From contig CAWFJP010000014.1 in NCBI GenBank assembly GCA_963816145.1, positions 416,001-480,000 on the forward strand: a stretch of 64,000 nt of DNA, read 5' to 3'. This document shows, one piece after another, positions 3,237-29,575 of this stretch. A program made the position numbers and the translations under genes. The notes beneath the pieces were generated by a model. It saw only the letters and a program-made list of their open reading frames with translations, was not told where the DNA came from and made no database searches. Each line of letters starts with the position of its first letter. The stretch's first letter is position 1. The stretch comes from an uncultured delta proteobacterium (lineage in GTDB: Bacteria; Desulfobacterota; Binatia; UBA9968).

Positions 3237-3268
3237 AGTTGGTTCCGTTTCTGGGGAAGTGAGTTTAA

Positions 3269-3396
3269 GTCATGCCCGCGCTATCGTCACCCCGGTGAAA
3301 ACCGGGGTCCATCCCATCCCGAAAATCTGGATACCGTTTTTCAACGGTATGACGAACTCTGTCCGTCGCCTGATTCCCGCTTTCGCCGGAATGACG
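3269..3396. repeat. REP/dRS3-like palindromic element, one copy nested in another
   Basis: Outer GTCATGCCCGCG...GATTCCCGCTTTCGCCGGAATGAC encloses inner CGTCACCCCGGTGAAAACCGGGGTCCA...TGGATACCGTTTTTCAACGGTATGACG (3285-3354). Confidence 0.8.
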
Positions 3397-8994: not shown

Positions 8995-9938
8995 AAATAT
9001 TCCTGTTGTGTTCCTTGTTGTTAAACATCTGCGTATGCACCGAAGCGGCAGAAAAAATCAGGATCACGGTTCCCGACACGAATGCCGCTTATATGACTTT
9101 TCCATTGGCGCAGAAAAGAGGTTTCTTGACTCATCAGGGCTTCGCAGCCGACGTTCTTTTGATGCGGGGCACGCTGACGGTACCTGCGCTCAATAACGGC
9201 GATATTGATTACCACACAGGGCTTCCGGTTGGCGTTCGAGGGACGGTCGCAGGTTTTCCTCTCAAGATCGTCGCCTGTTATCTGCCGCGCTCCAGCCTCA
9301 TGGTGGTTAGCCGTCCTGACATCAATTCGGTGCAGGATCTCAAAGGAAAAACGGTGGCTGTCAGCTCGTTCGGGAGCACCAATTCCGGAGCATTGCAGCT
9401 AATCGCCAAGCATTTCGGTCTCGATGCGGGAAGAGACATAAAACTCTTGGCTGTGGGTGCCAACGAGGCCCGGCTCGCGGCGCTGAAACAGGGAATAGTC
9501 GCTGCGATGGTGGTGCCTCCGCCCTGGGACTTTTATGCGAAAAAAATGGGGTTCCATGTGATAGCTCGAAGCTACGAATTTTTCAGCTATCCTCAGGTCG
9601 GGCTTATAGTGAACGAAAGCAAGATTAAGCGAAGACCCGACGAAATTAAGCGGGTGATTAAGGCAGGAATCGAAGCCAATCGATACATCCGATCAAATCG
9701 AGAAGGCACAGTGCAAGTCCTCATGGACTGGATGCGGATCGACAAGGATGTCGCTGCGGCTACTTATGAAGCCTTTTTGCCGGCGTTGAGTGAGGATGGA
9801 AACTGCCCCGAAGACGGCATGGGTTTAGTGATTGAAGAAGCAAAGAAAGCGGCCAAGGTAAGTCGCGATGTTTCAATGAAGGACGTCGCGGATCTCTCCA
9901 TTCTCAGGGAGGCGCAGAGGGAACTTGGAATCAAATAA
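8991..9938 (+). CDS. ABC transporter substrate-binding protein, NMT1/THI5-like
   Basis: Signal peptide, DLKGKTVAVSSFGS, RLAALKQG. Confidence 0.87.
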   Translation: MKIFLLCSLLLNICVCTEAAEKIRITVPDTNAAYMTFPLAQKRGFLTHQGFAADVLLMRGTLTVPALNNGDIDYHTGLPVGVRGTVAGFPLKIVACYLPRSSLMVVSRPDINSVQDLKGKTVAVSSFGSTNSGALQLIAKHFGLDAGRDIKLLAVGANEARLAALKQGIVAAMVVPPPWDFYAKKMGFHVIARSYEFFSYPQVGLIVNESKIKRRPDEIKRVIKAGIEANRYIRSNREGTVQVLMDWMRIDKDVAAATYEAFLPALSEDGNCPEDGMGLVIEEAKKAAKVSRDVSMKDVADLSILREAQRELGIK

Positions 9939-9954
9939 CAAGGAAAGGTAATTC

Positions 9955-10166
9955 ATGAAAATCATCCTTTCGGCTTTGCTTGATTTTGTTTTTTCACTTC
10001 TCAGCGTACGCGGCAGAGAAGATCCGCATCGCGATTCCCGAGCCGAACGCCGCCTATATGACATATCCAATAGCGTACAAGAAGGGTTTCGTGACGAACC
10101 AGGGCGTGGCAGTCGAGGTCATTTTGATGAGCGGTAAACTCGCGATGCCGGCGTTAAGCAACGGAG
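9955..10166 (+). pseudogene. Truncated, frameshifted 5' fragment of a paralog of the SBP at 8991
   Basis: AAEKIRIAIPEPNAAYMTYPIAYKKGF...PALSNG aligns with AAEKIRITVPDTNAAYMTFPLAQKRGF...PALNNG and stops abruptly at G|TTAGGG. Confidence 0.85.
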
Positions 10167-10219
10167 TTAGGGCCTGCACCAACACGGGTGTCGAGGCTAT
10201 GTTGAAGATAGGAAAAACC

Positions 10220-10393
10220 ATGAAACGACTCACTCTATTATTTTTCGTAGCGTTGTTGCCCTTCACGGGCTACTCGTCCGCTCAGGAGTCAATCGAGGGA
10301 AAGGGCCAATCAATAAAACGCAAGATCGAAGAAGTGATTTCCGGCTATCTGACCGAACTCAACGGTAAATATAAGTTCGGCAGCCCTGCCTAG
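10220..10393 (+). pseudogene. Truncated exported protein (signal peptide plus ~30 aa)
   Basis: MKRLTLLFFVALLPFTGYSSAQ signal peptide with AGGA RBS; interrupted at G|TTCGGC (10375). Confidence 0.55.
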
Positions 10394-10429
10394 GGTTTGT
10401 TGCAGGTGGGATAGAAAGGAGGGATTTCC

Positions 10430-11405
10430 GTGAACTTCAAGCAAGCCACGTGCGCTGTGATACTCGCTCTTGGAAGCGTCCTTGGCGTTGCCCTCTCCGA
10501 GGCGCAGCAGCCGGGAAAGATGACGCGTGTGGGGTTTCTCGGCACTGGCCCTGCCCCCACGCCCGCCACGCCCTATGGCCCGTTGCGGGAATTCCGGCAG
10601 GGCCTTGACGAACTCGGCTATGTCGACGGCCGGGACGTCGTCATCGAAACGCGCTGGGCAGACGGGCGGATCGACCAGCTCCCCGCCTTGGCTGCCGAAC
10701 TGGTGGGGCTCAAGGTGGACATCATCGTCGGCGTCGGTGCAGTGGTGGCGCGGGCGGCCAAGAGTGCGACGACGACCATTCCCATCGTGATGGCGGTGGT
10801 GATCGACCCCGTTAAATTTAGTCGCGGAGCGGCCCGGTGGCAACCTGACGGGGCTCACCACCTTTGACCCGCAGGAGGCCAGGAAGAAGCTCGAACTCCT
10901 GAAGGAGGTGGTGCCTGGGCTGGCGCGTGTGGCGCTCCTCGGGGATCAAGCGGTGCGGGACGTGAGGGGGCATGCAGAGCAGGCACGTGCATTGGGTCTG
11001 CAGCCGCAGAGTCTCACGATTGCTGGGGCTAGCCCGGATCTGGAGGCAGTCTTCCAGGCCATTAGGAGAGAGCACGCCGACGCGCTCCTGGTCCTGGACC
11101 TGCCCGCGACGGCAACCCATCGCAAACGGATTGCCGAGCTGGCGGCGCAGCAGCGGTTGCCCACCTTGTTTTGGGGCGGCTCGTCGGACGCAGGGGGGCT
11201 GCTCGGCTATGGCACCAGGGTCACCGAGGCGGCGCGGCGCCTGGCGGCCTATGTGGACCGGATTGTCAAAGGGGCGCAGCCCGCCGACCTGCCTTTCGAG
11301 GTCGTCGTGCGCCCCGAGCTCATCGTCAACCTCAAGACGGCGCAGGAGATTGGCGTCACGATCCCGCCAGAGGTGCTCAAGCGGGCAGACCGGGTCATAC
11401 AATGA
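10430..11405 (+). pseudogene. ABC substrate-binding protein (ABC_sub_bind/PF04392-like), frameshifted near 10815
   Basis: LAAELVGLKVDIIV, TTTIPIVM...DPV in one frame; RPGGNLTG...KGAQPADLP...NLKTA..IGVTIP..ADRVI in another. Confidence 0.85.
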
Positions 11406-11445
11406 GGGGCTCAGCTACCAGCTCGACAATAGGCGCGACCGAGCT

Positions 11446-11532
11446 GCCGAACAACCGCCTGCAGCCGACGCCTTCAGCGTCCGCTGTGCGTCGCTGCGGC
11501 TTCCGGGCAGCGGCTGAGGCGCAGCGTTGGCC
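11446..11532 (+). other. attC recombination site (87 bp)
   Basis: R'' GCCGAAC, L'' CCTGCAGCCG, L' CGGCTGAGG (one extra-helical base), R' GTTGGCC. Confidence 0.88.
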
Positions 11533-11584
11533 CTCTCAAGCACCGTCCACCTAAGGCGCGTCCCTTTGGAAAGGAGATCAGGCC

Positions 11585-12565
11585 ATGAATTCCCGCACGG
11601 TACGTGTCGTCTCGCACCTGATTTGTCTGCTTTTCACTGGATTAACGCTGTTTATCAGCCACGCGTTTGCCCAGATCTACAACATTAAGGAAATGAACAC
11701 GGAACAGATCAAGGCGCTCGATCGGGAGAAGACGGTCGTGCTTCTCCCCGTCGGTATCCTCGAAGAGCACGGCCCGTATCTGCCGTCGTTTTCGGACGGC
11801 TATTCAGCCGAGCGACGTACCGTAGACCTTGCCAATGCGATTGTAGAAAGGCCAGGGTGGAAAGTGCTGATTTTTCCTCTCATTCCTTTGGGTAGTGTCG
11901 GAGCCAATATCCTTGGCCAGAAATACGTTTTCCCCGGCTCTTACACCGTCCGTCCTTCAACGCTACGGGCTATCTTTATGGACCTGGCAACGGAGCTAGG
12001 CGAGCAGGGCTTTCGCTGGATCTTTGTGGTGCAGTCGCACGGCGGCTTGGATCACAATCGGGTTCTCAATCAGGCCGGCGACTACTTTCACGGCAGTTAC
12101 GGCGGGCACATGATTAATCTGCGGGCGCTCCTTGGACCCGAACTCCGGCCAAACACGCGCAGCGAAGAAGAACAACGAGACGATCATGCCGGGGTAGGTG
12201 AGACCAGCACCATTCTTTTCCTGCGGCCTGATTTGGTTAATCCGTCTTACAAGAATGCGGAGCCACTCCCGGCACGCGATCGGAAGCATCGCGTCGAGAT
12301 CGCAAAAGCGAGTAACTGGCCTGGTTACTGGGGTTCGCCCGGGTTTGCGAGCGCAGCCTCCGGGGCTAAGCAGTGGAAAGTCAGTTCCTCAAGTTGGGTC
12401 GAGCTTGCTCTCAAGATTTTGGATGGCTTTGATTACCGGCAGATGAAACGCCTCGGCGATGAGATTCGTGTGGATGAAGCTAGCGTCGAGAGAAACTTCC
12501 GGCAGCACAATCAGGAAATCGAAGCAAAGCAGCGGGAATGGTTGCAGCAAAAAGGGCTGGAATAG
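11585..12565 (+). CDS. Creatininase/amidohydrolase family protein with signal peptide
   Basis: LPVGILEEHGPYLP..SD, QSHGG, DHAGVGETS. Confidence 0.85.
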   Translation: MNSRTVRVVSHLICLLFTGLTLFISHAFAQIYNIKEMNTEQIKALDREKTVVLLPVGILEEHGPYLPSFSDGYSAERRTVDLANAIVERPGWKVLIFPLIPLGSVGANILGQKYVFPGSYTVRPSTLRAIFMDLATELGEQGFRWIFVVQSHGGLDHNRVLNQAGDYFHGSYGGHMINLRALLGPELRPNTRSEEEQRDDHAGVGETSTILFLRPDLVNPSYKNAEPLPARDRKHRVEIAKASNWPGYWGSPGFASAASGAKQWKVSSSSWVELALKILDGFDYRQMKRLGDEIRVDEASVERNFRQHNQEIEAKQREWLQQKGLE

Positions 12566-12773
12566 CCCGGCGGCAGCCGATGAAGCTATGAGCGATCTGT
12601 ATGTCGTGTATTTCTTGGAGACAAACCCTGGTATCAGGGCCACGAGCCACGTAGCGGATCTCTCGATCCTCAGACAGGCGCCTCGGTGATAAGATTCCTC
12701 CTCCGGCTGAACCCACTGTTGACGGGAAAACCTTTACACAGCAGAATCAGAAAATCGAAAGGAAACAGCAGGG

Positions 12774-14576
12774 ATGGCTGAAGCAGAAAGGGGTTTTTGG
12801 AGCCAGCGGGGGATTAAGCCATGGTTATTTGAAGCTTTGGCGGAGAACGCAGCGCGAGTTTGCGGCGATAGCGACGCAATTATTTTTCTCAAGAGAAATG
12901 GCGCGCTTCGACATGTCGCGCATTATGGCGCGATACCGACAGCTTCGAAAAAAGGAGAATCTGGCCCGCCGATCGATGACCGCCGCTCCGTGCCTGGCCG
13001 TGCGTTCGTCGATGGGCAAACCGTTCATGTACATGACGTTCAGGCAGGGGACGAGTTTCCGCTCACCAAGGCCGAAGGGCTCGCCTACGGGGTGCGCACG
13101 TCATTGGCCATGCCGTTGTTGCATGAAGGGGTCCCCATGGGCGTGATTCTGATGCGCCGAACGGAAGTACTCCCGTTTTCCGATAAAGAGATAGCTCAGG
13201 TCAAGATTTTCGTTGACCAAGCGGCGAGGGCGTTTGAGAATGGCCAGCTGTTTCGAGAGATAGATGCAAGAAACCATGACCTTGCTGAGTCCCTTGCCCA
13301 GCAAACCGCCACGAGCGAAATTTTGCGCGTGATTGCCAGCTCGCCCACCGACCTTCAGCCTGTTCTTAATGCGGTGGCCGAGAACGCCGCTCGAATATGC
13401 GAGGCGAACGACGCCTTGATTTATCGTTATGACGGTCATCGGATCAGAGGCGTGGCCGACTACGGACCTCTGCCTGGAGACATCGGCAGGGGACCGCGAG
13501 CTGTCGACAGTCAGTCGATTCCTGGCCGAGCGGTCATCAATGGGCAGACGATTCACGTCCATGATTTGTATGCGGTTCCAGAGAGTGAGTTGCGGGCGGG
13601 CTTCTTGAGAAAACATAATACGCGAACGGTTCTTGCGACACCGCTACTATGCCAGGGCAATCCCATCGGAGTGATCATGATCCGCCGAATGGAAGTCCGA
13701 CCGTTTTCGGACCGGCAAATCGCGCTTCTCGAAACCTTTGCCGATCAGGCTGTGATCGCGATCGAAAATGTTCGCCTCTTCCAAGAGATTCAGAACAAAA
13801 ACCGCCAGCTCGAAGTCGCCAATGAGCGGCTGCAGGAGCTGGACCGATTGAAATCGGACTTTGTTGCCAACGTTTCCCACGAGCTGAGAACGCCGCTCAC
13901 CGCGATTAAAGGCGCCATCGATTTGCTGCTCCGCGAAGTGGCCGGACCGCTCAACGAAAAACAAACACATTACCTCGCACGTGTGCGTTCGAACACGCAT
14001 CGTCTCGCCGGGCTGATCAATGATGTTCTGGATCTCTCGAGGATCGAGGAAGGAAAGATCGAGCTGCAAGCCGAGCGGGTGTCACTTGCGGGTCTTGTGC
14101 ACGAAGTTGTCGAGACCTTGAAGCCGCTCGCAACCGAAAGAGAAATTGTGCTTCAGGCGACGATTCCGGAAAGCTCATTGCTCGTGTGGGCAGACCGCGA
14201 CAAGATTACACAGATTTTGACCAATCTGATCGGCAATGCGGTGAAGTTTATCTCAACGGGCGGACGAGTGGCTGTCTCGGCGATAATTGATGGCGAATGG
14301 GTTCGAGTGTCGGTTGCTGACAACGGACCGGGCATTCCCCTGGACGAAAAAGACCGGATCTTCGATAAGTTTTATCAGATTGCCGATGTCGGGGGAGCAA
14401 AGCCGAAGGGCACCGGCCTCGGGCTTGCCATTTCCAAAGCGTTGGTAGAATTGCACGGCGGAAAGATTTGGCTTGAATCGGAGCGGAACCGCGGCAGCAT
14501 TTTTCATTTCACCTTGCCGGTATCCGGGTCGAGGCAGGCCGATTCCCGCGTAAACATTAGTAGCAATCTCGACTAA
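12774..14576 (+). CDS. GAF-GAF sensor histidine kinase
   Basis: Two GAF repeats, SHELRTPL H-box, NLIGNAVKF, DNGPGI, GTGLGL. Confidence 0.93.
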   Translation: MAEAERGFWSQRGIKPWLFEALAENAARVCGDSDAIIFLKRNGALRHVAHYGAIPTASKKGESGPPIDDRRSVPGRAFVDGQTVHVHDVQAGDEFPLTKAEGLAYGVRTSLAMPLLHEGVPMGVILMRRTEVLPFSDKEIAQVKIFVDQAARAFENGQLFREIDARNHDLAESLAQQTATSEILRVIASSPTDLQPVLNAVAENAARICEANDALIYRYDGHRIRGVADYGPLPGDIGRGPRAVDSQSIPGRAVINGQTIHVHDLYAVPESELRAGFLRKHNTRTVLATPLLCQGNPIGVIMIRRMEVRPFSDRQIALLETFADQAVIAIENVRLFQEIQNKNRQLEVANERLQELDRLKSDFVANVSHELRTPLTAIKGAIDLLLREVAGPLNEKQTHYLARVRSNTHRLAGLINDVLDLSRIEEGKIELQAERVSLAGLVHEVVETLKPLATEREIVLQATIPESSLLVWADRDKITQILTNLIGNAVKFISTGGRVAVSAIIDGEWVRVSVADNGPGIPLDEKDRIFDKFYQIADVGGAKPKGTGLGLAISKALVELHGGKIWLESERNRGSIFHFTLPVSGSRQADSRVNISSNLD

Positions 14577-26593: not shown

Positions 26594-27052
26594 ATGCTGC
26601 GAGTGTATTGCGACACAGGGGCGTATCGGTCCGAGCTCATGAAGTATGAGCAAGACGGACTGATCTCGGTTCATCAGTTCAAGTATGAAAATGCGAACCG
26701 TCATATAAGGCATGCAGCAGTTCCGTCCAATCCAACGTGGGACGAGATGAAGAACTACACTTGGGCCGACCTAAAGAAAATCGAAGAACTGAGAAACCTC
26801 ACCTGGGAGAGCGTAGAGCACACATCGGACAAGTTGAATGACATCATGGCGCTCGTTGGGACGAAGAACCTAATTGACGCGAAGCATTTGGATTCTGCAG
26901 TTGCTTCCGGGTGCAGCATCTTCCTCACTAGCGACAAGAAAGACATTTGGTCAAAGCGAGAAGCCCTCAAGTCGTTGACCGGGCTTCTAGTTCTTCACGT
27001 CACGACAGAGTGGGCAATCTTTGTTCAATTGGTCGAGAAAAATGACGCCTAA
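26594..27052 (+). CDS. Cassette 1: PIN-domain-like protein
   Basis: VYCDT at the N-terminus, DAKHLDSA, FLTSDK; acidic-residue pattern of PIN RNases. Confidence 0.65.
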   Translation: MLRVYCDTGAYRSELMKYEQDGLISVHQFKYENANRHIRHAAVPSNPTWDEMKNYTWADLKKIEELRNLTWESVEHTSDKLNDIMALVGTKNLIDAKHLDSAVASGCSIFLTSDKKDIWSKREALKSLTGLLVLHVTTEWAIFVQLVEKNDA

Positions 27053-27133
27053 CCCGCGGCTTAAGACTGATGTCAAGAACGCTCGCCTGAGAGGCTCGCT
27101 TATTCGCCACGGCTTAGCCGCATAGCGTTAAAC
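27047..27133 (+). other. attC site 1 (87 bp)
   Basis: GCCTAAC overlapping the stop codon; GCTTAAG / CTTAGC L boxes; GTTAAAC. Confidence 0.85.
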
Positions 27134-27147
27134 GGCACCTTGATCCG

Positions 27148-27969
27148 ATGACACAAGAACACGCGACCGAGAAGCAGCCTATCGCACCCGAATGGGCGAC
27201 TCAGCCGTTTCATCGTTTTCTCGACCAAGCCGAACGACTCGGGGATGTTGTTCAACTTAGCGTCCGTGGCATTTCTGTATTTCTCGCTATCCCCAGCGCT
27301 GTTGCAGTTCTCGCAAAAGTCGAAGAGAAGGACAAGACCACTGAGCATAAGCAGCGATTAGAACGCGTACGCAAGGATGCCGAGTTGGCACAGCGCGAGA
27401 TTGAGACCGGCTTTCCCATCGTCTTCGCAAACGCAACCGTTGCTTTATGGTCGTTTCTTGAATCAATGGTCCGCGCCACTCTTGTTGCGTGGCTGAAGAA
27501 TGACTCAAAAGCGTTCCAAAGTGACGCAATCGCCAAACTGCGCGTTAGATTGGGAGAGTACGAACGACTTATGCAAGACGAGCGATATCACTACGTCGCG
27601 GAACTACTCGAGGCCGAGCTCGCCGCTGGCTTAAGAAATGGCGTCGAACGATTCGAGGTAATGCTAAAACCGTTTGGATTGGACGGTTCTGTTCCAGAAA
27701 AGCTACGTCGCGACATGTTCGAATTCGGTCAAATTAGAAACGCGATTGTTCATAGGGGCGGACACGTTGATCGTCAGCTTTCGAACGCGTGCCCTTGGCT
27801 CGGATTTGCCGTTGGGGAGGAACTGCCAATAGGTCGAGATCATTTCAACCGATACGGGGAAGCTGCACACTACTATGTTATCTTGCTTATCTGCCGCATG
27901 GGCGAGTGTTTCGGGAAAGATATGACCGACGAGAAGCAATCGGTTATTGCAAAGTATGGACCCGGTTAA
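27148..27969 (+). CDS. Cassette 2: HEPN-like protein
   Basis: Helical protein with an R-x4-H motif (RNAIVH) and an upstream SFLE helix. Confidence 0.6.
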   Translation: MTQEHATEKQPIAPEWATQPFHRFLDQAERLGDVVQLSVRGISVFLAIPSAVAVLAKVEEKDKTTEHKQRLERVRKDAELAQREIETGFPIVFANATVALWSFLESMVRATLVAWLKNDSKAFQSDAIAKLRVRLGEYERLMQDERYHYVAELLEAELAAGLRNGVERFEVMLKPFGLDGSVPEKLRRDMFEFGQIRNAIVHRGGHVDRQLSNACPWLGFAVGEELPIGRDHFNRYGEAAHYYVILLICRMGECFGKDMTDEKQSVIAKYGPG

Positions 27970-28035
27970 CAACGCGTTCGAAAGAGGACGCCGTGCGAGA
28001 AAGCGGTAGCGCGCCGTTCAACGCGGGCGTTAGGC
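27964..28035 (+). other. attC site 2 (72 bp)
   Basis: GGTTAAC overlapping the stop codon; GCGTTCGAA / TTCAACGC; GTTAGGC. Confidence 0.87.
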
Positions 28036-28080
28036 AGGCTTGCCGGGTGCGGCCGAGAATGGAACGGGTATAAGACAGAG

Positions 28081-28818
28081 ATGACCGATTACTCAATAAA
28101 AAAGCATCTTCTCACTGAAAAAGAGTCCTCACGGCTTGAGCAACTGGGCGTCGAACTAGCTCCGAGTTCGTTGAAGTTAGAACGAGCGCTTTCACGTCGC
28201 GAGATGTTGGAGGTGTGGGGTATCATTTGGGCCCTCCGGGAACGAACCGCAGATCCAGAGAACGGCATTCAATTTGCCGTCGGGGATTGGTTGGTTGCTG
28301 CCGAATCGAGGTTTGGTAATTTTTGTGACCTTGTCCGAGAGGACGGCCTTCCACGCCCTAGAGTGATGATTTGCTACAAACACCAGGATTCGGAACGAGA
28401 CCAATGGGTTCAACGACTCTGTACTGATTTGCGGTCGAAGTTCGGAGTCGATGCAAAGCTCGACGATTTCGAAGTTGACTACGGTCAATCGTTCAGCGAC
28501 TACATGACATCGGAAATTGATCGCGAATGTGATGCGTTGTTATTCGTTATTACGTCGGCATCAGTTGCAGCCGTGGACGAGAAAAAAGCTGGCGGAGTTC
28601 ATTTTGAAATGCAATTAGCGAATGCGAGGCGAATTCGCGATTTGAGCTTCCGCATAATAGGAGTCTACCGCGAAGGTACTGAGATGACATCGTACCTACA
28701 TGACCTTCGCTACATAGATTTCAGAGATGATGGTTTGTACGGGACCCAGATTCGAGAATTGGCCCTCTCTCTGTGGGGCCAACGGAACAGGCCGCTTCTG
28801 CGGGATCAACTCGCATGA
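28081..28818 (+). CDS. Cassette 3: TIR/SEFIR-domain protein with an unknown N-terminal domain
   Basis: RVMICYKH..WV..L..DL...GVDA.LD, GGVHFE (candidate catalytic Glu), YIDFR. Confidence 0.8.
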   Translation: MTDYSIKKHLLTEKESSRLEQLGVELAPSSLKLERALSRREMLEVWGIIWALRERTADPENGIQFAVGDWLVAAESRFGNFCDLVREDGLPRPRVMICYKHQDSERDQWVQRLCTDLRSKFGVDAKLDDFEVDYGQSFSDYMTSEIDRECDALLFVITSASVAAVDEKKAGGVHFEMQLANARRIRDLSFRIIGVYREGTEMTSYLHDLRYIDFRDDGLYGTQIRELALSLWGQRNRPLLRDQLA

Positions 28819-28840
28819 GATCGATTGAGCGCAACCGGTT

Positions 28841-28904
28841 GCCTAACAACCGGTTTGAGTCCAGCGTTCCTAAACGTAGCGCGACTTAACCGTAAGCGTT
28901 AAGC
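28841..28904 (+). other. attC site 3 (64 bp)
   Basis: GCCTAAC; CGGTTTGAGTC / GACTTAACCG; GTTAAGC. Confidence 0.87.
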
Positions 28905-28926
28905 GGACAGTAGAGGAAATGCATTC

Positions 28927-29469
28927 ATGGCAAAAAGGCGGAAGGCGCGGTTTAGCGTAAGGCCCCGCGATAAGAACGTCTGGGCCAACTCAACGTGGCG
29001 AATATGGCGCGGTGAACTCCGCAGGCGTCCTGGCCCACCCGGCCAGAGCCTATTCAAGGTCGTCGCCGAGAAACTGCCTTACGAATCGATCCGGACGGTT
29101 GAGAAAGTCATGAAGGAGCGTCGCCTCAGCCGAACTGGTGTGTACGTGGCCCACGACTCCATGGGTACCGCACGCTATATAGGCAGAGGGAGAATCTTCA
29201 GTCGGCTAAAGGCACACCATCGGAGGTATCCGCTTGTTTTTCTCTACTATTCGTTCTACGTCGTTCCCAACAAGAGCCATGAACGTGAGGTTGAGACCCT
29301 CCTTATTCGAGCGGCGGGTTCGCTCCTAGAATTTAACCAAAAGAAAAAGCGCGTCACCATATCCGCGGGAAGTATCCGCGACTACGAAGCAGGGACCGTC
29401 TATTTTCAGAGGCACCGTCGTCGTGAGTCGTCGAAAAGAAAGAAAATTTGTGAGAACAGCGCCTCCTAA
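28927..29469 (+). CDS. Cassette 4: GIY-YIG-like nuclease
   Basis: GVY-x9-YIG, RL..H, E.LLI, terminal N. Confidence 0.75.
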   Translation: MAKRRKARFSVRPRDKNVWANSTWRIWRGELRRRPGPPGQSLFKVVAEKLPYESIRTVEKVMKERRLSRTGVYVAHDSMGTARYIGRGRIFSRLKAHHRRYPLVFLYYSFYVVPNKSHEREVETLLIRAAGSLLEFNQKKKRVTISAGSIRDYEAGTVYFQRHRRRESSKRKKICENSAS

Positions 29470-29515
29470 TGCAGACAGGGAAGAAAAGGGGATAAGTCCG
29501 ATTATTGACAGTGGT

Positions 29516-29575
29516 GCCTAACCATTGGGTTGAGAAGGCCGCGGCGGACCGCGCCTCGCACCCTAAACGTAAGGC
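29516..29575 (+). other. attC site 4 (60 bp), degenerate R' box
   Basis: GCCTAAC; GGGTTGAG / CGCACCC; GTAAGGC in place of GTTAGGC. Confidence 0.7.

Follow-up and report, generated by a model that had tools for sequence, protein, structure and literature searches.

A gene cassette inside a cupin gene

The window, the whole stretch of 64,000 nucleotides that was analysed, contains an integron gene cassette of 1151 bp (10376-11526, plus strand, as are all features below), present as a single unit within a small gene for a secreted cupin. Its limits were drawn from the comparison of empty and filled alleles of the locus, from a homologous cassette in another genome (L105), and from the divergence of the window and a second filled allele (L089) after the attC site. 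Its base composition is distinct as well, with a sharp jump in G+C from 0.47-0.53 to 0.63-0.70 over about 10400-11600 (0.47-0.57 around the cassette). Read directly from left to right, the locus shows the junction G/TTCGGC (10375-10381; the slash marks the crossover), made up of the G of the target and the first six bases of the cassette, and then a leader of 54 nt (10376-10429) with a ribosome-binding site GGAGG at 10418-10422. The cargo gene (10430-11405) starts with a GTG at 10430, 55 nt after 10375, and is followed after 40 nt by an attC site of 87 nt (11446-11532), of which the last six bases, TTGGCC (11527-11532), form the right-hand half of R' and come from whatever lay to the right of the crossover. 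The cargo is one open reading frame, oriented as the attC site and preceded by its short leader; in the window it is read in two frames (10430-10867 and 10908-11405), both of which match the periplasmic binding-protein family ABC_sub_bind (Pfam PF04392; E 2.6e-11 and 1e-14). A consensus scan of the plus strand of 9900-11700 found no promoter-like site, which is weak evidence, and the cassette lies in the orientation of the cupin gene, so that the cupin promoter is the only visible source of its transcription.

The two ends of the cassette are related in sequence. As the initial annotation had pointed out, the R'' box of the attC site is GCCGAAC (11446-11452) and its exact complement, GTTCGGC, stands at 10375-10381 (7 of 7 bases), 55 nt before the start of the cargo gene; both readings are correct. 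Such complementarity is expected of the R' of a cassette before it integrates. The heptamer is common by itself, with 29 matches on both strands of the window (13 on the plus strand) against 17.9 expected, a count reached in 2 of 100 shuffles, and the weight of the left boundary therefore rests on the sequence comparisons described below. Judged on sequence features, the unit at 10376-11526 has every one that could be tested for a cassette and for a solitary attC site outside an integron (SALIN).

The attC site

An alignment with 13 attC sites places R'' at 11446-11452, a spacer at 11453-11456, L'' at 11457-11467, L' at 11511-11520, a second spacer at 11521-11525 and R' at 11526-11532. This is the layout of an attC site, R''-spacer-L'' and then L'-spacer-R', with the conserved AAC and GTT triplets and unpaired central spacers of 4 and 5 nt. 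By eye, GCCT[G]CAGCCG pairs with CGGCTGAGGC and leaves G11461 of L'' bulged; the array site arr2_a has a bulged G in the same place. The folding energy of the site was no better than that of shuffled sequences (z -0.70 and -0.21) and thus uninformative, and a covariance model was used as the criterion instead. A regular-expression detector of attC sites, far too noisy in its relaxed form, served solely to collect array sites.

To build the covariance model (R1), the candidate was left out and 11 further attC sites of this genome were used; eight are array sites and three are solitary or clustered (C1, C31 and the site at 28841 in the window). Its structure is supported by the training sites, as 83.8% of cells are paired compared with 71.4 +/- 2.1 in shuffles (none of 500 reached the observed value), and nine of the 17 pairs change on both sides; slid controls gave 24-42%. 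R1 matches 11446-11532 end to end on the plus strand with 34.4 bits (E 5.3e-6 for the window); genome-wide the E value is 6.4e-4, where 150 of 4375 first-look candidates were scored. Five of the 39 listed matches in the window have E below 0.01, namely one training site, the candidate and three others, and these three together with the training site make up a cluster of four attC sites at 27047-29575. The candidate also has the local consensus of the attC sites of the genome, for example TGCAGC-GACG as in the first site of the second array. Its orthologue in the filled allele L089 scores 50.6 bits with R1 and is 86% identical to it, and in one contig of the public run X2 the site carries six small indels, one of them at the bulged G. 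On the strength of the model and the alignment, the attC site is real and of the host's own type.

Integrons of the host genome

The assembly that contains the window (G000) comprises 7.8 Mb in 31 contigs, with 99.5% completeness and an estimated contamination of 6.7%. The integron-integrase model TIGR02249 gave 11 matches in it, two of which exceed the curated cut-off (468 and 466 bits against 265). Both of these integrases lie on contig C15, not on the contig of the window, and each adjoins an array of attC-like sites that share the strand of the integrase gene, which is the inverted arrangement. The integrases of this genome are not IntI1. Other attC sites occur in the genome with no integrase adjoining them, including candidate solitary sites on C1, C31, C11 and C9, and no integron integrase was found above the cut-off in the window.

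The nearest other attC site in the window, at 27047, lies 15.5 kb from the cassette, and the only integrases above the cut-off are those on C15, so that the cassette is solitary in the sense of a SALIN. The cluster of four to which that site belongs resembles the cupin locus in the family of its attC sites, in the lack of a nearby integrase, and in promoterless small open reading frames that are each followed by attC. It differs from the cupin locus, which has one attC site, 15.5 kb away from the cluster, and a demonstrable interrupted host gene.

The interrupted gene and the left junction

The open reading frame at 10220-10393, which the initial annotation recognized as a signal-peptide frame ending NGKYK/FGSPA-stop, is the N-terminus of a cupin gene. 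Positions 10220-10375 are the first 52 codons, signal peptide and linker, of a gene whose full-length homologues (P0009-P0019) are secreted cupins of about 140 aa with a Cupin_2 domain (PF07883); in P0009 that domain spans residues 88-154 and lies wholly beyond the break. The cassette is joined after the G of codon 52, with the crossover between G and TT, and the cupin reading frame (...NGKYKFGSPA-stop) now stops five codons into the cassette. It had been proposed that homology to the 10220 frame would cease at 10375, and it does exactly so. The homologues match up to ...NGKYK and continue LxxTExTFEPGG; in an alignment of six full-length cupins, identity runs to ...SGYLTELNGKYK and ends there; and the residue after KYK is L in all six, none of which ends FGSPA as the window does. 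Intact alleles, described below, read G-T-T at this point.

The initial annotation had also reported that neither attC nor attI lies upstream, and this stands. R1 found no attC site upstream of 10375, nor upstream of the junction in the filled and empty alleles; its only hits there were of 8.8 and 11.8 bits (E 5.4 and 1.1) on a hairpin of 25-30 nt at 10352-10381. The DNA to the left of the junction is conserved cupin coding sequence, and the target is therefore not an attI site. A comparison of the target with the two attI regions of the genome revealed nothing in common beyond GTT. One might nonetheless read the locus as the last remnant of a decayed integron or array at a former attI or attC, with the signal-peptide frame as unrelated debris: the locus is full of gene fragments, and the attC sites elsewhere in the genome that have no integrase beside them are in keeping with such decay. 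We consider this exceedingly improbable, given that the left-hand DNA is cupin coding sequence, uninterrupted in homologues from other phyla and in the empty alleles, which contradict this reading, and that no attC site or integrase gene was found nearby.

Further upstream there is an older junction. Positions 9955-10165 hold an N-terminal fragment of a second NMT1-type binding-protein gene, 56% identical (tblastn) to the start of the neighbouring NMT1 gene. The fragment ends ...AACGGAG/TTAGGG (between 10166 and 10167), and it is at this G/TTAGGG junction, which truncates the NMT1 gene, that the cupin unit begins. All alleles, the empty ones included, have this junction in common, and in contigs of two public runs another upstream sequence is joined to it at the same base. 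In relatives, NMT1 genes are found in tandem.

Empty and filled alleles

A scan of metagenome contigs returned 61 loci, nine of which were inspected. Two of these (L040 and L041) are empty alleles, in which the whole cupin gene is present and the site reads ...AAATATAAG/TTGAGTGCT, that is, AAG/TTGAGT. Three (L047, L049 and L089) are filled alleles that read ...AAATATAAG/TTCGGCAGCC, with AAG/TTCGGC at the site as in the window. In a further locus (L096) the cupin gene is broken after the same G by an ISL3 insertion sequence, and L042, L046 and L048 are distant intact homologues. The uninterrupted site in L040 and L041 reads AAG/TTG and thus provides G-T-T at the junction, in agreement with 5'-GWT-3'. 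The proposal of the initial annotation that the insertion took place at a secondary, GWT-type chromosomal site (attG) is supported by these intact alleles.

In the filled alleles, identity to the window is 99% for the cupin part (10221-10375) and 94-100% for the leader and cargo gene; in the empty alleles, it is 89% for the cupin part and about 79% overall for the flank. These identities fit a single insertion event that would have been inherited by a clade. Contigs in three of four public runs bridge the left junction (pieces 10241-10499, 10265-10659 and 10279-10493). A join that skips the cassette was not seen in the four runs, which is not evidence that those samples lack the empty allele. 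By a 31-letter rule, none of the listed contig pieces bridges the right junction, and the nearest start 17 and 10 letters to the left of the crossover. The stretch in the window, or at least half of its sampled words, occurs in 19 listed runs, from soil and wetland metagenomes. Among sequenced genomes, neither a DNA search of 60 relatives nor a protein search of 30 genomes of the genus with P0009 found a syntenic empty site; the ASST-NMT1 synteny holds in G001, G025 and G027, but the DNA downstream differs. The conclusions draw nothing from the unpublished genomes G005 and G035.

A related cassette was found beyond this locus. When genome contigs were scanned with P0023, the intact form of the cargo protein found in L089, 18 loci emerged, and the nine best were scanned with R1. 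One of the nine has an attC-like site (L105, a Terriglobia MAG with a cargo protein 59% identical), about 70 nt after the gene and with a score of 27.9 bits (E 1.5e-4). Its cassette begins GTTCGGC and has the R'' GCCGAAC, and homology to the window starts exactly at GTT; the L box differs on both strands (GGTT...AACC in L105 and GCCT...AGGC in the window). The bases before GTT, TTAAACAATAG in L105, resemble GTAAATATAAG in the window, and the two targets share a similar AT-rich TAAAnAnnAG/TT. The initial annotation had suggested a search for the cassette in arrays elsewhere; a homologous cassette exists, but it is solitary within its contig stretch of 7 kb and not a member of an array. Presence and absence at one site, together with this related cassette in the Terriglobia MAG, mark the unit as mobile. 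The nearest relatives that lack attC are L103 (a Binatia MAG), with 82% protein and 88% DNA identity, limited to the coding part and within a tandem set of such genes, and L104 (Pseudaquabacterium terrae), with 72%.

The recurrence of the boundaries bears on whether an integron integrase was involved at all. Foreign DNA could have been joined here by illegitimate or homologous recombination, or the join could be an assembly chimera; the sharp jump in G+C, the metagenome-type assembly with its 6.7% contamination, and the ISL3 element that abuts the same G in L096, which may mean that this AT-rich spot is fragile, would each accord with this. The break, however, falls exactly at G/TT, and the first bases of the cassette are complementary to its own R''; the homologous cassette in another phylum has the same two boundaries; and three metagenome contigs, as well as contigs of three of the four runs, show the same junction. 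Transfer by other means also predicts variable junctions among independent filled alleles, which are not seen. We therefore regard such an origin as very improbable.

The right side of the attC site

The right-hand side of the cassette is less orderly than the left. In the window, the G of R' is followed by TTGGCC, 52 nt, a creatininase-family gene at 11585-12565 (PF02633, E 3.8e-40), and a remnant of about 45 nt, at 12640-12685, of the 3' end of an NMT1-type gene, located by aligning the stretch with NMT1 gene ends. From about 12678 on, the sequence is again homologous to the empty allele L040 (blastn of 12680-13000 against 1711-2030 of L040, 90.7%). The empty alleles L040 and L041 lack the creatininase gene and have 205 nt between the cupin gene and a kinase gene. 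To the right of its attC site, L089 has TTAGGC, then a ribosome-binding site and an NMT1-type gene. The window and L089 diverge exactly from the crossover point rightward, which implies that a later rearrangement occurred. A search with P0009 found no 3' part of the cupin gene after the attC site or anywhere in genome G000, and it is missing from both alleles with a readable right side, the window and L089.

The creatininase gene has an orthologue in one of the 60 other genomes of the family that were searched, where it follows an ABC_sub_bind gene with no attC between the two. It seems to go with the filled allele (contigs of 178,847 and 49,616 bp), and two other contigs (121,189 and 10,043 bp) seem to carry truncated and intact cupin copies; both observations rest on coincidences of contig size and are hints only. 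With a limit of E 10, R1 found no attC site behind the creatininase gene, the NMT1-type gene of L089 or the cupin gene of L040, and none in G031. Cupin homologues were also considered as cassette cargo, and this was rejected: in a scan of the 61 loci with default filters, an attC site occurs near a cupin homologue in L044 and L045 only, and in neither does it directly follow the gene.

Taken together with the left side, these data lead us to conclude that an integron integrase very probably placed the cassette at G/TT in a chromosomal cupin gene, an attG site, where it now forms a SALIN. This conclusion draws on the anatomy of the cassette, its exact junction, the empty and filled alleles, and the presence in this genome of integrases and of arrays whose attC sites are of a similar kind. 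The donor would have been a free circular cassette, which one of the two integrases of the genome would have joined to G/TT in the cupin gene; the missing 3' part of that gene would have been lost after the insertion. The attC site may have stayed active thereafter, since the alleles differ to the right of it, starting at the crossover. Several points weigh against this reading. The creatininase gene and the NMT1 remnant, absent from the empty alleles, stand where the 3' part of the cupin gene is expected; the four runs show no join that skips the cassette, and the empty alleles that could be read are only about 79% identical to the flank; no listed contig piece bridges the right junction; the integrases are not on the contig of the window, and the estimated contamination of the assembly is 6.7%; and the IntI1 hotspot motif CRGM, taken up below, is absent from L040. 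The initial annotation's description of the locus as a natural insertion footprint accordingly survives as regards the insertion; the footprint is not a clean one, with the 3' part of the cupin gene missing and a right-hand context that differs between alleles.

The main rival to insertion is a one-step deletion. Here, the cassette would already have been downstream, resident in a small array or brought by an earlier off-site insertion, and by the same integrase chemistry the attC site just upstream of it would have recombined with G/TT in the cupin gene, removing at once the 3' part of the latter and all that lay in between. The absence of that part from both the window and L089 is as this reading would have it, and so is the occurrence of the creatininase gene with the filled allele and not in the empty ones; the cluster of four attC sites lies 15.5 kb off in the window; and deletions through recombination at nearby genome sites have been reported, according to the portions of a preprint available to us (bioRxiv 10.1101/2022.09.11.507474). 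A deletion of this kind nevertheless needs an earlier cassette between the cupin and kinase genes, of which L040 and L041 bear no trace. The bases TTGGCC bear on the choice as well. They could encode Leu-Ala, the residues that follow KYK in the P0009 type of intact allele, the one closest to the filled allele; the filled alleles P0001 and P0004 have the same cupin start as this type, which comprises five sequences of 173 aa on ENA contigs of 339,677, 871,014, 457,165, 21,958 and 19,599 bp. TTGGCC thus fits an insertion followed by a deletion that started 6 nt further on, the chance of an accidental GGC being about 1 in 64, and as putative Leu-Ala codons it mildly favours that order of events. 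Overall, we consider the one-step deletion possible but unlikely.

The cargo gene

The initial annotation held that the cargo is decaying, which is true of this assembly and not of L089 and L047. In comparison with L089 and L047, the gene in the window has gained 1 nt and lost 6 nt near 10814-10826, and its frame is broken; the frame is open in L089 (326 codons, encoding the 326-aa protein P0023) and in L047 (329 codons). The contigs of three public runs that cover the lesion have one base fewer than the window. This assembly is thus the sole source of the frameshift, which may be an error of assembly, and decay of the cargo is a property of the window copy only.

Estimates of dN/dS by the Nei-Gojobori method, which rest on small counts and are high among the inserted copies, were 1.03 for L089 against L047 (22 non-synonymous and 8 synonymous differences), 0.57-0.59 for the window against L089, 0.75 for the window against L047, and 0.35 for L089 against the Pseudaquabacterium gene. 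The inserted copies of the cargo are likely to be under relaxed constraint.

Comparison with known insertions and significance

Classical secondary-site insertions, to which the discussion of the preprint alludes, involve resistance cassettes on plasmids, such as aadB downstream of a plasmid promoter. The cupin locus would resemble these in having a cassette outside attI with a foreign promoter as its source of expression. It differs from such plasmid-borne, clinical and antibiotic-selected cases in being chromosomal and in carrying a non-resistance cargo, probably under relaxed constraint. The work of Loot et al. on SALINs and attC x attG insertion has reportedly been published in Nat Microbiol (2024, 9:228-240).

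In the portions of the preprint available to us, integron integrases insert cassettes at genome sites with the consensus 5'-GWT-3', named attG; such insertions disrupt genes, and imprecise excision at neighbouring sites deletes pieces of the genome (bioRxiv 10.1101/2022.09.11.507474). The same portions count 3400 SALINs in 2469 of 21,105 genomes, and describe the motif CRGM at +6 to +9 as a hotspot motif of IntI1 (bioRxiv 10.1101/2022.09.11.507474). This motif does not define all attG sites; what does belong to their definition is recombination as double-stranded DNA, with cleavage limited to the bottom strand. As far as that text goes, insertion of cassettes at genome sites has been shown in laboratory assays, and in nature deduced from counts of solitary attC sites. 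The cupin locus shares with this system, as described there, a single cassette and attC site away from an integrase or another att site, a join at G/TT (5'-GWT-3') within a gene, the disruption of that gene, and the loss of neighbouring DNA, which the preprint has for imprecise excision. Unlike the cases in those portions, the event here occurred in nature. Its host is an uncultured soil or wetland bacterium that has inverted-type integrases of its own, and the empty and filled alleles both persist in public data. CRGM, in contrast to the IntI1 hotspots of the preprint, is absent from +6 to +9 of the empty allele L040, which has TGCT. The preprint counts SALINs, and in its accessible parts we found no empty-site alleles for natural cases; nor, in the literature searched and insofar as it was accessible, did we come across a natural attG event for which the empty allele had been reported. 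Sequence comparison supports the view of the locus as a natural case of the attC x attG (SALIN) insertion already described, with a right side that is not simple.

Beyond this, we entertain as a doubtful proposition that an attC site outside an integron stays a live recombination site that keeps remodelling its locus, and that the present locus records nested off-site insertions. We base it on the split at the crossover between the window (TTGGCC, creatininase) and L089 (TTAGGC, NMT1-type gene), on the older G/TTAGGG junction that truncates the NMT1 gene and has alternative upstream joins in two runs, and on the related solitary cassette at a similar AT-rich target in another phylum.

The cassette in the cupin gene leaves the picture of how integrons work unchanged. 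Its value lies in the fact that the states before and after one natural event can be read to the base, in a bacterium that has its own integrases. This attC site and the intact cupin site offer a concrete substrate pair for the target rules of non-clinical integrases, and strains can be compared to see what becomes of an off-site cassette, with a cargo probably under relaxed constraint, a frame broken in one assembly and an attC site with indels in another. There is, moreover, a hint that off-site cassettes cause further local rearrangement; if their attC sites do remain live, solitary cassettes would be portable rearrangement hotspots and not dead ends.

Integrons and solitary attC sites in the genome

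Apart from the cassette joined inside the secreted cupin gene, the window carries a cluster of four cassettes at 26594-29575, without an integrase, whose attC matches (27047-27133, 27964-28035, 28841-28904 and 29516-29575) all lie on the plus strand. One cargo of this cluster (28081-28818) has a TIR_2 domain, and a Pfam search of its remaining cargoes gave no match. Two complete integrons are found elsewhere in the same genome, within G000:C15:177000-204000 (loci L023 and L024), both of the inverted type in which the integrase gene and the cassettes share one strand. Their integrase genes occupy C15:184021-185103 and C15:202184-203278, the second with a LexA-like gene immediately 5' of it. Solitary attC matches were also recovered on other contigs of the genome, at C1:351501-351945, C31:585746-585808, C11:214768-214856 and C9:156144-156221; the one on C1 is preceded by a cupin gene whose product is 34% identical to P0009, a full-length cupin homologue.

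The attC of the cupin-borne cassette itself differs in another strain. One contig from metagenome run X2 has six small indels inside this site (window 11461-11509), one of which removes the bulged G of position 11461, and these changes suggest that the attC is decaying in the strain behind that contig.

Relatives of the cassette and its neighbours

A Terriglobia MAG (L105:2940-4100) carries another lone cassette belonging to the family of the one in the window. Its boundary heptamers are identical to those in the window and its target is likewise AT-rich and similar; it lies between a gene for a large repeat protein and an ORF for which a Pfam search found no match. The cargo also has a relative in a Binatia MAG (L103:3001-3954), 88% identical to it in DNA, which sits within a tandem set of binding-protein genes, has no attC, and has a G+C content of 0.68 versus 0.59 for its locus. 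Either the cassette gene came from this gene, or this gene is a cassette gene that has been domesticated.

To the right of the cassette, the creatininase and kinase genes are separated by ∼45 nt (window 12640-12685) that remain of an NMT1-type gene, from its 3' end. The only creatininase orthologue found in the 60 other genomes of the family that were searched is on G031:C639 (L010/L022), from a different genus. There, too, the gene stands directly 3' of an ABC_sub_bind gene, one whose composition is native, and no attC separates them.

Other junctions at the cupin gene

The cupin-gene G that precedes the cassette in the filled alleles is also the base adjoined by an ISL3-family insertion sequence in metagenome locus L096 (600-1990; 1379 bp; inverted repeats GGCTCTTCGCG...). 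The far end of this element shows no target duplication, and unrelated DNA lies beyond it.

Upstream of the cupin gene, a fragment of an NMT1 gene ends within window 10160-10175 as ...AACGGAG/TTAGGGCC (slash, junction), again a G/TT-type junction. It is common to the empty and filled alleles, and in contigs from metagenome runs X1 and X4 other upstream sequence is joined at exactly this base. The unit that holds the cupin gene may thus be an off-site cassette of older date, but no attC was found 3' of this gene in L040, one of the empty alleles. Near a 60%-identical cupin homologue on metagenome contigs L044 and L045 there is an attC-like site (3259-3348), not directly 3' of the gene, and further such sites, likewise not directly after it, occur at L045 7313-7438 and 8286-8351.
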